From Escherichia coli (GTDB taxonomy: Bacteria; Pseudomonadota; Gammaproteobacteria; Enterobacterales; Enterobacteriaceae), in assembly GCF_003334765.1 (NCBI RefSeq), contig NZ_QOWT01000020.1: DNA of 64,000 nucleotides; one strand, written 5' to 3'. Shown piece after piece: positions 8,738 to 21,173 of this stretch (position 1 is the stretch's first letter; each line of letters begins with the position of its first letter). A model generated the notes under the pieces. The model was given only the letters and a program-made list of their open reading frames with translations. It ran no database searches and was not told where the DNA came from. Both the position numbers and the translations under genes were made by a program.

Positions 8738-10402
8738 TTACTCGCCTACTTTCGCCCAGGTATCACGCAGCCCAACGGTGCGGTTAAATACCGGTTTTTC
8801 CGCCGTAGAATGGCGGCTATCGAGGCAGAAGTAACCTTCACGCTCAAACTGGAATGCTTTACCCGCAACCGCATCTTTCAGCGACGGTTCAGCAAAGCCC
8901 TGTTTGATCACCAGCGATTCCGGGTTAATCACCGACAGGAAATCATCCGCAGCACCTGGGTTAGGCACGCTGAACAGACGGTCATACAAACGGATTTCAA
9001 CCGGCAGCGCATGTGCCGCGCTCACCCAGTGAATAACACCTTTGACTTTACGACCATCTGCCGGATCTTTGCTTAAGGTATCGGCGTCATAAGTACAGAA
9101 GATGGTGGTGATATTACCTTCGGCATCTTTCTCGACGCGTTCTGCCTTAATCACATAAGCATTACGCAGACGCACTTCTTTACCCAGCACCAGACGTTTG
9201 TACTGCTTGTTAGCTTCTTCGCGGAAATCGGCGCGATCAATCCAAATCTCACCGCTAAACGGCACCTGACGGCTGCCCATTTCCGGTTTGTTCGGATGGT
9301 TCGGCATGGTAACCATTTCGCCTTCGCCCTGATAGTTTTCGATAACCAGTTTCACCGGATCGATAACCGCCATTGCGCGCGGCGCATTTTCGTTGAGATC
9401 TTCACGGATGCAGGATTCCAGCGACGCCATCTCAATGGTGTTGTCCTGCTTGGTCACGCCGATGCGTTTGCAGAACTCACGAATAGAAGCCGCAGTGTAA
9501 CCACGACGACGCAGACCGGAAATGGTCGGCATACGCGGGTCATCCCAGCCTTCAACGTGCTTGTCGGTCACCAGCAGGTTCAACTTACGCTTGGACATCA
9601 CGGTGTATTCCAGATTCAGGCGCGAGAACTCATACTGGCGCGGGTGAACAGGAATCGTGATGTTGTCCAGTACCCAGTCGTACAGACGACGGTTGTCCTG
9701 GAACTCAAGCGTACACAGAGAGTGCGTAATACCTTCCAGGGCATCGCTGATGCAGTGGGTGAAGTCGTACATCGGGTAGATGCACCACTTGTTGCCAGTC
9801 TGGTGGTGTTCAGCAAATTTAATACGGTACAGCACCGGATCGCGCATCACGATAAACGGTGAAGCCATGTCGATTTTCGCACGCAGGCAGGCTTTACCTT
9901 CTTCAAAACCACCGGCACGCATTTTTTCGAACAGCGCCAGGTTCTCTTCAACGCTGCGGTCGCGGTACGGGCTGTTTTTACCCGGTTGCGTCAGGGTGCC
10001 GCGGTATTCGCGGATCTGTTCCGGCGTCAGTTCATCAACGTACGCCAGGCCTTTATTGATCAGTTCGATCGCATAGGCGTGGAGCTGATCAAAATAATCG
10101 GAGGAGTAACGGACGTTACCAGACCAGTGAAAACCTAACCACTCTACGTCGTTTTTGATCGACTCAACATACTCGATATCTTCTTTTACCGGGTTAGTGT
10201 CGTCGAAACGCAGGTTGCACTGGCCTTTATAGTCCTGGGCGATCCCGAAGTTCAGGCAGATAGATTTCGCATGGCCAATATGCAGATAGCCATTCGGCTC
10301 CGGCGGGAAACGGGTGTGTACTGTGGTGTGCTTACCACTGGCCAGATCTTCATCGATGATCTGACGGATAAAGTTAGTCGGGCGGGCTTCTGCCTCACTC
10401 AT
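8738..10402 (-). CDS. glnS: glutaminyl-tRNA synthetase
   Basis: 554-aa [23 protein letters not shown] with HIGH (HIGHAK) and VMSKR motifs. Confidence 0.97.
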
Positions 10403-10604
10403 CGTGGATTCCTCAAAGCGTAAACAACGTATAACGGCGTATGATCTTATAAGCGGGACAGGCTGACAACTGTTAGTTTTTTAAAATTGATAATCTAACA
10501 AGGATTATGGGGATGATTGATGAAAAAAAAAGCGGCAGAGAAGATCTCCACCGCTTGTCATTGTTGGATGCGACGCTCAAGCGTCGCATCAGGCATAAAG
10601 CAGA

Positions 10605-17317: not shown

Positions 17318-18982
17318 ATGTGTTCAATTTTTGGCGTATTCGATATCAAAACAGACGCAGTTGAGCTGCGTAAGAAAGCCCTCGAGCTGTCACGCCTGAT
17401 GCGTCATCGTGGCCCGGACTGGTCCGGTATTTATGCCAGCGATAACGCCATTCTCGCCCACGAACGTCTGTCAATTGTTGACGTTAACGCGGGGGCGCAA
17501 CCTCTCTACAACCAACAAAAAACCCACGTACTGGCGGTAAACGGTGAAATCTACAACCACCAGGCATTGCGCGCCGAATATGGCGATCGTTACCAGTTCC
17601 AGACCGGGTCTGACTGTGAAGTGATCCTCGCGCTGTATCAGGAAAAAGGGCCGGAATTTCTCGACGACTTGCAGGGCATGTTTGCCTTTGCACTGTACGA
17701 CAGCGAAAAAGATGCCTACCTGATTGGTCGCGACCATCTGGGGATCATCCCACTGTATATGGGGTATGACGAACACGGTCAGCTGTATGTGGCCTCAGAA
17801 ATGAAAGCGCTGGTGCCAGTTTGCCGCACGATTAAAGAGTTCCCGGCGGGGAGCTATTTGTGGAGCCAGGACGGCGAAATCCGTTCTTACTATCATCGCG
17901 ACTGGTTCGACTACGATGCGGTGAAAGATAACGTGACCGACAAAAACGAGCTGCGTCAGGCACTGGAAGATTCAGTTAAAAGCCATCTGATGTCTGATGT
18001 GCCTTACGGTGTGCTGCTTTCTGGTGGTCTGGATTCCTCAATTATTTCCGCTATCACCAAGAAATACGCAGCCCGTCGCGTGGAAGATCAGGAACGCTCT
18101 GAAGCCTGGTGGCCGCAGTTACACTCCTTTGCTGTAGGTCTGCCGGGTTCACCGGATCTGAAAGCAGCCCAGGAAGTGGCAAACCATCTGGGCACGGTGC
18201 ATCACGAAATTCACTTCACTGTACAGGAAGGTCTGGATGCCATCCGCGACGTGATTTACCACATCGAAACTTATGATGTGACCACTATTCGCGCTTCAAC
18301 ACCGATGTATTTAATGTCGCGTAAGATCAAGGCGATGGGCATTAAAATGGTGCTGTCCGGTGAAGGTTCTGATGAAGTGTTCGGCGGTTATCTTTACTTC
18401 CACAAAGCACCGAATGCCAAAGAACTGCATGAAGAGACGGTGCGTAAACTGCTGGCCCTGCATATGTATGACTGCGCGCGTGCCAACAAAGCGATGTCAG
18501 CCTGGGGCGTGGAAGCACGCGTTCCGTTCCTCGACAAAAAATTCCTTGATGTGGCGATGCGTATTAACCCACAGGATAAAATGTGCGGTAACGGCAAAAT
18601 GGAAAAACACATCCTGCGTGAATGTTTTGAAGCGTATCTGCCTGCAAGCGTGGCCTGGCGGCAGAAAGAGCAGTTCTCCGATGGCGTCGGTTACAGTTGG
18701 ATCGACACCCTGAAAGAAGTGGCTGCGCAGCAGGTTTCTGATCAGCAACTGGAAACTGCCCGCTTCCGCTTCCCGTACAACACGCCAACCTCTAAAGAAG
18801 CGTACTTGTATCGGGAGATCTTTGAAGAACTATTCCCGCTTCCGAGCGCCGCTGAGTGCGTGCCGGGCGGTCCTTCCGTCGCTTGTTCTTCCGCTAAAGC
18901 GATCGAATGGGATGAAGCGTTCAAGAAAATGGACGATCCGTCTGGTCGCGCGGTTGGTGTTCACCAGTCGGCGTATAAGTAA
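17318..18982 (+). CDS. asnB: asparagine synthetase B (glutamine-hydrolysing)
   Basis: ORF 17237..18982; internal start MCSIFGVFDIK (Cys2 nucleophile) gives 554 aa. Confidence 0.97.
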   Translation: MCSIFGVFDIKTDAVELRKKALELSRLMRHRGPDWSGIYASDNAILAHERLSIVDVNAGAQPLYNQQKTHVLAVNGEIYNHQALRAEYGDRYQFQTGSDCEVILALYQEKGPEFLDDLQGMFAFALYDSEKDAYLIGRDHLGIIPLYMGYDEHGQLYVASEMKALVPVCRTIKEFPAGSYLWSQDGEIRSYYHRDWFDYDAVKDNVTDKNELRQALEDSVKSHLMSDVPYGVLLSGGLDSSIISAITKKYAARRVEDQERSEAWWPQLHSFAVGLPGSPDLKAAQEVANHLGTVHHEIHFTVQEGLDAIRDVIYHIETYDVTTIRASTPMYLMSRKIKAMGIKMVLSGEGSDEVFGGYLYFHKAPNAKELHEETVRKLLALHMYDCARANKAMSAWGVEARVPFLDKKFLDVAMRINPQDKMCGNGKMEKHILRECFEAYLPASVAWRQKEQFSDGVGYSWIDTLKEVAAQQVSDQQLETARFRFPYNTPTSKEAYLYREIFEELFPLPSAAECVPGGPSVACSSAKAIEWDEAFKKMDDPSGRAVGVHQSAYK

Positions 18983-19029: not shown

Positions 19030-19292
19030 AGGTGCTTGTTGATTCTGATATGCAGTAAGGAAATGTTCCGGGTTTGCCACATCACTGTTTGACAACTCAT
19101 CACTGTAGGCCAGTATTTCATAGATTAATTTCCCACCACTATTGTTAAATTCCGAATTTCATCCTGTATGACAAAAGAATGGCTGTAGGGTGGGAAAAAA
19201 CACAAAGTAAACAATAATTGACGAATATAGCGCCACGCTGTTCGCAACCTAACCAAACAGTCACTTTCGAGCAATTTTCCTTGAAAAAGAGG

Positions 19293-19321
19293 TTGACGCT
19301 GCAAGGCTCTATACGCATAAT
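19293..19321 (+). promoter_or_regulatory. sigma-70 promoter of the tRNA operon with GC-rich discriminator
   Basis: TTGACG, 17-bp spacer, CATAAT, then GCGCCCCGC about 40 nt upstream of the first tRNA. Confidence 0.6.
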
Positions 19322-19361
19322 GCGCCCCGCAACGCCGATAAGGTATCGCGAAAAAAAAGAT

Positions 19362-19438
19362 GGCTACGTAGCTCAGTTGGTTAGAGCACATCACTCATAA
19401 TGATGGGGTCACAGGTTCGAATCCCGTCGTAGCCACCA
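19362..19438 (+). tRNA. metT: tRNA-Met (elongator, anticodon CAU)
   Basis: GGCTACGTAGCTCAGTTGGTTAGAGC...CTCATAA...GGTTCGAATCC...GTAGCCACCA. Confidence 0.95.
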
Positions 19439-19447
19439 TCTTTTTTT

Positions 19448-19532
19448 GCGGGAGTGGCGAAATTGGTAGACGCACCAGATTTAGGTTCTGGCGCCGCAAG
19501 GTGTGCGAGTTCAAGTCTCGCCTCCCGCACCA
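19448..19532 (+). tRNA. leuW: tRNA-Leu (anticodon UAG), long variable arm
   Basis: GCGGGAGTGGCGAAATTGGTAGACGC...TTTAGGT...CCTCCCGCACCA. Confidence 0.95.
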
Positions 19533-19555
19533 TTCACCAGAAAGCGTTGTACGGA

Positions 19556-19630
19556 TGGGGTATCGCCAAGCGGTAAGGCACCGGTTTTTGATACCGGCAT
19601 TCCCTGGTTCGAATCCAGGTACCCCAGCCA
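19556..19630 (+). tRNA. glnU: tRNA-Gln (anticodon UUG)
   Basis: TGGGGTATCGCCAAGCGGTAAGGCACCGGTTTTTGATACCGG...ACCCCAGCCA. Confidence 0.95.
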
Positions 19631-19645
19631 TCGAAGAAACAATCT

Positions 19646-19722
19646 GGCTACGTAGCTCAGTTGGTTAGAGCACATCACTCATAATGATGGGGTCACAGGT
19701 TCGAATCCCGTCGTAGCCACCA
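19646..19722 (+). tRNA. metU: tRNA-Met (elongator, anticodon CAU), second copy
   Basis: Identical to the tRNA at 19362..19438. Confidence 0.95.
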
Positions 19723-19769
19723 AATTCTGAATGTGTCGAATATGTTCGGCAAATTCAAAACCAATTTGT

Positions 19770-19844
19770 TGGGGTATCGCCAAGCGGTAAGGCACCGGAT
19801 TCTGATTCCGGCATTCCGAGGTTCGAATCCTCGTACCCCAGCCA
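19770..19844 (+). tRNA. glnV: tRNA-Gln (anticodon CUG)
   Basis: TGGGGTATCGCCAAGCGGTAAGGCACCGGATTCTGATTCCGG...ACCCCAGCCA. Confidence 0.95.
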
Positions 19845-19854
19845 CATTAAAAAA

Positions 19855-19880
19855 GCTCGCTTCGGCGAGCTTTTTGCTTT
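19855..19880 (+). terminator. intrinsic terminator of the tRNA operon
   Basis: GCTCGC-TTCG-GCGAGC followed by TTTTTGCTTTT. Confidence 0.85.
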
Positions 19881-19892
19881 TCTGCGTTCATT

Positions 19893-19988
19893 CAATGTCG
19901 AATGCGATGTTGACACGTCTTATCCTTCAATGTCGGATGCGACGCTGCCGCGTCTTATCCGACCTACGGTTGGCACGCATCCGGCAAT
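19893..19988. repeat. REP-like palindromic repeat cluster
   Basis: Repeated ATGTCG(A/G)ATGCGA...CGTCTTATCC units and GCACGCATCCGGCA. Confidence 0.6.
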
Positions 19989-19997
19989 GTTGTAAGG

Positions 19998-21173
19998 CTA
20001 CAACCCTAACGCATATTTCAGCGCCTGACGTTTCAACACGCCAGCACGCTCCGCCGCCATTAACCCGAGATTACGCATAAAACGCAGTGGTGGCAGATTA
20101 TTGCTGAATCCGGCATAAAACAGATCCATACCGCTTTGCATAATGAAGTTATCCGCCATGCGCCGCATCTGGTAACGCTTGAGGACAGGATAACTGGCCC
20201 ACGCTTCGCCGTAGCTGCGGGCGTTGACCAGAACATCAATCAGGGCATCGACATCACGATAACCAAGATTCACTCCCTGCCCCGCCAGCGGATGGATGGT
20301 ATGCGCGGCATCGCCCACCAGCGCAAGCCCTGGCTGCACGTACTGCAACGCATGGCGACGCGTCAGCGGAAACGCACCAGCGGCAAGCGGTGTAACGTAA
20401 CCCAGACGCGACGGGAAATGCTTCGCGATTTCCGCCTGGAGCTGTGCCATATTCATATTCTGCAACTGGCGAATACGCGCCGGAGAGTCATACCACACCA
20501 GCGATGCCCAGTTATCAAACAACGGCAGAAACGCACGCGGTCCGTCCGGAGTAAATTGCTGCCAGGTGCTGTCGCCGGGATCGTTCTCGCACTGGACGCT
20601 AATCAACATGCACGACTGCGCATACTGCCATGCATGAACGCCAATTCCCGCCATCTGCCGCACCTGCGAATTTGCGCCGTCGGCACCAATCACCAGCTTC
20701 GCGCGAATCACTTCACCGCCTTTCAGCTCCAGCTCCTGAAGATCATCATGGCGATGCAGCGCAATCAGCGAGCCTGGCACACGTAACGTTACTTTCGGAT
20801 GCGCTTCCAGCGCCTGCCACAACGCCTGTTGCAGGACAGTGTTTTCCACCATATAGCCAAGCAGCGGTAGCTTAAGTTCAGCGGCGTCAAACACCACATG
20901 CGCCGTTTCCCACTCCCACGTTTCCAGTCTGCGGTAAGGATGGCAACGCATAGCCTGTACTGCATCCCAGACCCCTAACCCTTTAAGCAATGATACCGAA
21001 GCCGCGCTGATCGCCGAGATCCGCACGTCCGGTTGGCTATCAGCGACAAACGGCGCTGGTTCTGCGTGCTCGATCACCGTTACCGCAAATCCGTGCTGTG
21101 CCAGCCCCAGCGCCAGTGCGCCGCCGACCATTCCTCCGCCGACAATGGCAATTTCCGTTGGTTGATTTGTCAT
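19998..21173 (-). CDS. ubiF: FAD-dependent 2-octaprenyl-3-methyl-6-methoxy-1,4-benzoquinol hydroxylase
   Basis: ORF 19998..21179; MTNQPTEIAIVGGGMVGGALALGL Rossmann GxGxxG; second Met chosen (391 aa). Confidence 0.93.
   Translation of the reverse strand: MTNQPTEIAIVGGGMVGGALALGLAQHGFAVTVIEHAEPAPFVADSQPDVRISAISAASVSLLKGLGVWDAVQAMRCHPYRRLETWEWETAHVVFDAAELKLPLLGYMVENTVLQQALWQALEAHPKVTLRVPGSLIALHRHDDLQELELKGGEVIRAKLVIGADGANSQVRQMAGIGVHAWQYAQSCMLISVQCENDPGDSTWQQFTPDGPRAFLPLFDNWASLVWYDSPARIRQLQNMNMAQLQAEIAKHFPSRLGYVTPLAAGAFPLTRRHALQYVQPGLALVGDAAHTIHPLAGQGVNLGYRDVDALIDVLVNARSYGEAWASYPVLKRYQMRRMADNFIMQSGMDLFYAGFSNNLPPLRFMRNLGLMAAERAGVLKRQALKYALGL

Follow-up and report, generated by a model that had tools for sequence, protein, structure and literature searches.

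A five-gene form of the metT tRNA operon in Escherichia coli: collapse in assembly or loss of one copy from each glutamine tRNA pair

In Escherichia coli all genes for glutamine tRNA lie in the metT operon, and duplicate suppressor tRNA genes are a classical case of genetic instability. The duplicate tRNA2Gln genes are reportedly known from classical genetics, through work by Inokuchi in 1979. Studies of tandem-repeat instability suggest that short repeats close to each other more probably lose copies by RecA-independent slippage or sister-strand misalignment.

Salmonella has the same seven-gene operon (PMC5400242); hence seven genes are the ancestral, conserved state. On the Salmonella plasmid pUST314 a spontaneous recombination between metT and metU deleted leuW-glnU-glnW, and the product was sequenced (PMC5400242). 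The dependence of the metT operon transcript on RNase P and on its terminator is described in PMC2241853, and a tRNA copy variation of +/-1 among E. coli strains has been published (PMC4539685). The literature searched gave nothing relevant on unequal recombination between duplicates of supE or of tyrT, and the ST1193 genome paper holds nothing on the metT operon locus. Earlier work thus covers the operon with its tandem duplicates, the recombination between these and the variation in copy number of tandem tRNA genes among strains, and five-gene alleles are annotated in RefSeq. The five-gene state described here is variation of a known kind, either an ordinary polymorphism or an artefact.

The operon in the window and in K-12

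In the 64-kb stretch of DNA that we analysed (the window), ARAGORN finds exactly five tRNA genes, all on the + strand, and the Rfam tRNA model (RF00005) matches the same five with 57.6-71.1 bits, the gathering score being 29. They lie in the gap between asnB and ubiF and are transcribed in the same direction as asnB. The features of the locus are these:

17318-18982, + strand: asnB, the upstream neighbour (ECCTRSRTH03 annotation moved over by the alignment offset)
19293-19321, + strand: metT-operon promoter, sigma-70-like, with -35 TTGACG, a 17-nt spacer and -10 CATAAT
19362-19438, + strand: elongator tRNA-Met(CAU) in the metT position (ARAGORN, Rfam), identical to K-12 metT and metU
19448-19532, + strand: tRNA-Leu(UAG), leuW (ARAGORN, Rfam), identical to K-12 leuW
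19556-19630, + strand: tRNA-Gln(UUG), single, with its 5' flank from glnU and its 3' flank from glnW
19646-19722, + strand: tRNA-Met(CAU) in the metU position (ARAGORN, Rfam, K-12 alignment)
19735, + strand: SNP in the metU-glnV spacer, G in the window and A in K-12, the sole base difference from K-12 in the operon
19770-19844, + strand: tRNA-Gln(CUG), single, with its 5' flank from glnV and its 3' flank from glnX
19850-19885, + strand: Rho-independent terminator, a hairpin with an 11-bp stem, AAAAAGCTCGC-TTCG-GCGAGCTTTTT, followed by a T-rich tail (hairpin and T run at 19850-19875)
19998-21173, - strand: ubiF, the downstream neighbour (ECCTRSRTH03 annotation with the alignment offset)

The promoter agrees with the consensus at 10 of 12 positions in a scan and is identical to the corresponding sequence in front of the K-12 operon. 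Identical, too, is the terminator, which begins six bases past the Gln(CUG) gene and corresponds to the K-12 sequence 3' of glnX. The sequence-only reading of this DNA had listed five tRNAs, Met-Leu-Gln(UUG)-Met-Gln(CUG), from promoter to terminator, with the terminator directly after Gln(CUG), and had described the K-12 operon as a seven-gene one in which the Gln genes are tandemly duplicated. Coordinates, order and anticodons agree with ARAGORN and Rfam. The description of K-12 was also correct: in MGY, a K-12 derivative, the locus has seven genes, Met-Leu-Gln-Gln-Met-Gln-Gln.

In K-12 the two members of each pair, glnU and glnW, glnV and glnX, metT and metU, have the same sequence throughout. 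The Gln pairs are perfect direct repeats of 75 bp (77 bp if the flanking microhomology is counted), and the two gene types, Gln(UUG) and Gln(CUG), differ from each other at 7 of 75 positions. Except for the SNP, window 19250-19900 (651 bp) is the K-12 sequence minus one unit of 109 bp and one of 112 bp. The first unit is made up of the 34-nt glnU-glnW spacer (TCTTCTTCGAGTAAGCGGTTCACCGCCCGGTTAT) and a 75-bp gene, the second of the 37-nt glnV-glnX spacer (ATTTATTCAAGACGCTTACCTTGTAAGTGCACCCAGT) and a 75-bp gene. Both duplication spacers are missing from the window, the outer flanks are kept and there is no new junction sequence; the breakpoint in Gln(UUG) can be placed anywhere inside the 75-bp repeat at 19556-19630. 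Since no new junction arises when a deletion joins perfect repeats, the sequence of the window alone cannot reveal by which mode the copies were lost.

The window is thus like the K-12 operon in locus, promoter, terminator, gene order and spacers, and every tRNA is 100% identical, whereas it is 221 bp shorter and has glnU/glnW and glnV/glnX as single genes, hence five genes and not seven. The distance from the asnB stop to the ubiF stop is ~1,015 bp in the five-gene form and ~1,236 bp in the seven-gene form. What the window carries is a copy-number allele of the canonical E. coli metT (supB-E) tRNA operon and not a different operon.

Two features of the surroundings may be added. From the terminator to ubiF (19880-19990) the window holds repeated palindromic motifs, tcaatgtcgaatgcga... 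and tcaatgtcggatgcgacgctg...cgtcttatccgacctac, which are REP/BIME-like in appearance; many genomes diverge from the window there, which breaks up alignments. The gene for glutamine-tRNA ligase, glnS, lies at ~8738-10402 on the - strand, ~9 kb upstream of the sole Gln tRNA operon, which is the known K-12 arrangement.

Frequency and relatives of the five-gene form

Because the five-gene form has no diagnostic junction, we chose a synthetic query that joins both duplication spacers, each with flanks of 20 nt, and that can match only genomes in which a spacer is kept. The 5,426 complete E. coli genomes divide as follows:

Both spacers present: 5,210 genomes (96.0%)
One spacer, or a partial match: 188 genomes (3.5%)
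Neither spacer: 28 genomes (0.5%)

The glnU/W spacer alone is missing in 84 of the 5,426 genomes, and the glnV/X spacer is missing or incomplete in ~160. If the two were lost independently, 2.5 genomes would be expected to lack both, against the 28 found. At least 14 genomes (~0.26%) are true five-gene genomes, judged by a contiguous single-piece match to the window, and the double loss is more than 5 times commoner than independent single losses predict. Eight were confirmed from the deposited annotation (ECCTRSRTH03, FDAARGOS_1077, CEA106S, STK39-3-E, IPCEC31, GF66.1, GF43 and AVS0543), five of these eight by ARAGORN as well. All eight RefSeq alleles are identical to the window in architecture; the last four sit on other backgrounds.

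A 99-nt exact pattern for the single-copy Gln(UUG) gene gave no match in species-representative genomes or metagenome contigs, where the canonical arrangement was itself present on only 2 contigs. One metagenome contig with the canonical arrangement, OASX01006143.1 (positions 2341-2515 of L018), ends 76 nt past the first Gln(UUG) gene; here a short-read assembly broke at the tandem repeat and did not collapse it.

A reference alignment with five genes as the common state in this lineage would have refuted the sequence-only reading, and this is not what the relatives show. With a 25-kb flank as the query, the match extends over 25,221 bp, the query plus 221 bp, in about 59 of the 60 nearest genomes (100.0% identity), and ECCTRSRTH03 is the only one to align as a single 25,000-bp piece. 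The seven-gene genome BS74R-D differs from the window by 0 SNPs in the upstream 19.6 kb and by 4 in the downstream 20 kb. At five sites it agrees with the window, whose allele is not that of the other five-gene genomes with coverage there (CEA106S is without two of these sites). Over 40 kb the only other length difference between BS74R-D and the window is a 1-bp indel at window position 10523, apparently in the glnS-nagE intergenic region.

Four five-gene genomes, ECCTRSRTH03, FDAARGOS_1077, CEA106S and STK39-3-E, match the window with 100% identity along 1.6 kb. Over 40 kb the four differ from it by 9, 12, ~175 and ~175 SNPs and represent at least two haplotypes; none of them is as near to the window as the seven-gene BS74R-D. 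The genomes nearest to FDAARGOS_1077 are without exception seven-gene ones, and AVS0543 belongs to a clone that also holds seven-gene genomes. Taken together, five-gene genomes occur on at least 8 backgrounds, with differing ubiF alleles and always amid near-identical seven-gene genomes. The five-gene state is derived, sporadic and confined to the tips of the tree.

One of the five-gene backgrounds has an extra ORF following asnB. Some E. coli backgrounds carry in the asnB-metT interval a 438-bp ORF on the opposite strand (hypothetical proteins WP_000943484 and WP_000943487; 986-1423 of L006, 1225-1662 of L016), which is absent from the window and from K-12.

Collapse in assembly or deletion in the cell

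Unequal recombination and assembly collapse, the alternatives offered by the sequence-only reading, are exactly the two that the evidence leaves, with one period of each repeat gone; the 75-bp identity underlies the one as much as the other. We rank collapse first by a narrow margin and give it a probability of about one half. The organism would then have seven genes, and the assembler or polisher would have fused the two identical 75-bp copies of each Gln pair, by which the 34-nt and 37-nt spacers would have been discarded.

One argument for collapse comes from assemblies that are certainly wrong. In 12 of the 5,426 complete genomes (0.22%) the essential leuW-Gln(UUG) segment is absent from every replicon, two of them being without any match. 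By the standard decoding rules nothing other than the leuW and Gln(UUG) tRNAs is known to read CUA and CAA, and the 12 assemblies hence cannot be right. These 12 records, 'complete' in RefSeq and with non-viable tRNA sets, are assembly errors. At the asnB-ubiF locus, four of them read:

MC1061 (NZ_CP195014.1): Met and Gln(CUG) only
CEA224S (NZ_CP166080.1): zero tRNA genes
IAL7250: Met and two copies of Gln(CUG)
ST648 (NZ_CP008697.1, L016): Met-Leu-Gln(CUG)

Collapse between identical tRNA genes at this locus hence occurs in at least 0.22% of the assemblies, which is about the frequency of the five-gene form (~0.26%).

Non-viable and five-gene states moreover come from the same sequencing projects. 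In the GF project GF66.1, GF43, GF60 and GF54 have five genes and GF47 a non-viable set; in the AVS project 0543, 0790 and 0967 have five genes and 0947 a non-viable set; in the IPCEC project the corresponding assemblies are 31 and 48, and in the CEA project 106S and 224S. Of the 14 five-gene genomes, 9 come from these four projects, as do 4 of the non-viable ones identified (5 if the uninspected IPCEC42 is counted). Such a distribution suggests that non-canonical states of the operon depend on the laboratory or the pipeline. As to the origin of the series rich in such states, GF (chicken meat), AVS (wastewater and rivers) and STK (imported herbs) are all from Switzerland, presumably from one laboratory, while IPCEC is from Cambodia and CEA from France. 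On one clonal background (24.5 kb around the AVS0543 operon, L017; 100.0% identity) there are AVS assemblies with 7, 6, 5 and 2 genes, and the three five-gene genomes of this clone all come from one project. The joint absence of both spacers in excess (28 against 2.5) fits a cause that acts on an assembly as a whole. The locus thus behaves as is known for the collapse of tandem repeats in assembly, with non-viable collapse in 12 complete assemblies that are grouped by project, and the window would be one more of the collapsed assemblies.

There are, however, several points against collapse. Unlike the clear artefacts, the five-gene set is viable, none of the four tRNA species being missing from it, so that the state of the window cannot be called an artefact from sequence alone. 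Five-gene genomes were also deposited by unrelated submitters (ECCTRSRTH03, FDAARGOS_1077, TUM9757 and strain 2824); with the artefact-prone projects removed ~4 five-gene genomes are left, close to the 2.5 that independent real losses would give. The three AVS five-gene genomes may form a real subclone within the clone for which four submitters report six genes. Finally, an assembler able to get through the 77-bp metT/metU repeat would as a rule manage the 75-bp Gln repeats too.

A real and recent loss of one copy from each Gln pair is a serious contender, to which we would assign a little less than even odds. It would have taken two separate homology-mediated events between the perfect 75-bp direct repeats, by replication slippage, sister-strand misalignment or RecA-dependent unequal exchange. 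What is known of short, close repeats suggests that, of these, RecA-independent slippage or sister-strand misalignment would be the likelier route. The window has what a deletion product should have: perfect direct repeats in the ancestral form, exactly one period gone per pair (109 bp and 112 bp) with no scar and with the outer flanks retained, and closest relatives without the deletion. Every tRNA species survives, and the duplicate tRNA2Gln genes are already a subject of classical genetics. Recombination has been observed directly in this operon, between metT and metU, and variation of +/-1 copy among E. coli strains is on record (PMC5400242, PMC4539685). The window resembles the pUST314 deletion and the instability of duplicate suppressor tRNA genes in its short perfect direct repeats, the loss of one period and the lack of a scar; it differs from pUST314 in that two separate adjacent pairs are affected and that the event in the cell is putative.

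That single losses are inherited is indicated by the AVS0543 clone. A six-gene form without the glnU/W duplication is common to AVS0196, EcPF18, 1428_w1_hybrid and OZ039171, which come from four submitters, and is probably a real sublineage; hence the loss of one duplication is indeed inherited. In three six-gene genomes the alaW-alaX pair is intact, which argues against a genome-wide collapse in those assemblies. The alaW-alaX pair has the same geometry as the Gln pairs and loses its spacer at a similar rate: the 39-nt spacer (K-12 alaX-alaW, 5638-5828 of L020) was undetected in 135 of 5,426 genomes, 2.5% being an upper bound as this spacer is more variable.

On the other hand, a real deletion needs two independent rare events on a haplotype that is otherwise that of seven-gene genomes. 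The double loss exceeds the expectation from independence more than 5-fold and is concentrated in the projects that also yield non-viable assemblies. A five-gene clade spanning several laboratories was not found, the nearest neighbours of FDAARGOS_1077, for example, all having seven genes.

A variant of the operon that does look like a product of recombination is seen in N18-04097 (NZ_CP047277.1; 1563-1940 of L014), a viable four-gene hybrid that reads Met-Leu-Gln(UUG), the 34-nt glnU/W spacer, Gln(CUG) and terminator. It looks like the result of an exchange between glnW and glnX, which are not identical (7 mismatches in 75 bp), with the loss of metU and of one copy of each Gln type.

It is a different claim that a reduced Gln-tRNA gene dosage has been selected repeatedly, with the loss of one pair favouring the loss of the other. 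The excess of double losses (28 genomes, at least 14 of them five-gene, against 2.5 expected) and their recurrence on at least 8 backgrounds speak for it. However, the excess vanishes without the artefact-bearing projects, the five-gene state never makes a clade and seven genes have been kept ever since E. coli and Salmonella diverged (PMC5400242). In our opinion selection is therefore very improbable. We give just as little credence to the wider proposal that the five-gene state is real, that selection or epistasis produced the excess of double losses, half the gene dosage of both Gln isoacceptors being of advantage in certain circumstances, and that the metT operon would be a fast reversible contingency locus for tRNA supply.

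Weaker still is the idea that five genes are normal for the lineage of the window, or ancestral with seven as a K-12 peculiarity: in its favour are four complete genomes that have five genes and exactly the window sequence along 1.6 kb, but they fall on at least two haplotypes that are all farther away than the seven-gene BS74R-D, and it is ruled out by the retention of both duplications in 96.0% of the 5,426 genomes and by the seven-gene neighbours (about 59 of the 60 closest, with the extra 221 bp, and those of FDAARGOS_1077 and AVS0543), the operon of Salmonella having seven genes as well (PMC5400242).

Gene dosage and the reliability of tRNA gene counts

It had been claimed at first reading that Gln-tRNA dosage is changed either way. 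This stands if the deletion is real and fails if the assembly has collapsed. With a real deletion each Gln isoacceptor would be left with a single gene, which halves its usual dosage, and as all Gln tRNA genes are in this operon a lower supply of tRNA-Gln in fast growth would be probable. The spare copy that allows a supE-type suppressor mutation would be gone. The context of processing would be unchanged, the outer spacers and the terminator being intact, and the whole would be a small, strain-level effect of a known kind.

Irrespective of how the window came to its five genes, public 'complete' genomes, that of the laboratory strain MC1061 included, are an unreliable source for counts of tRNA genes at this locus, and surveys of tRNA copy number need to be checked against reads.

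In the K-12 derivatives PG20180060, J53-p131 and C600-p2-V both duplication spacers are present and only three tRNA-Gln genes are annotated. C600 is a known supE44 strain. Probably the amber-suppressor glnX44, with anticodon CUA, is not labelled as tRNA-Gln in C600, and apparently the same applies to the other two derivatives; glnX44 is treated in PMC4444293 and PMC11148124.
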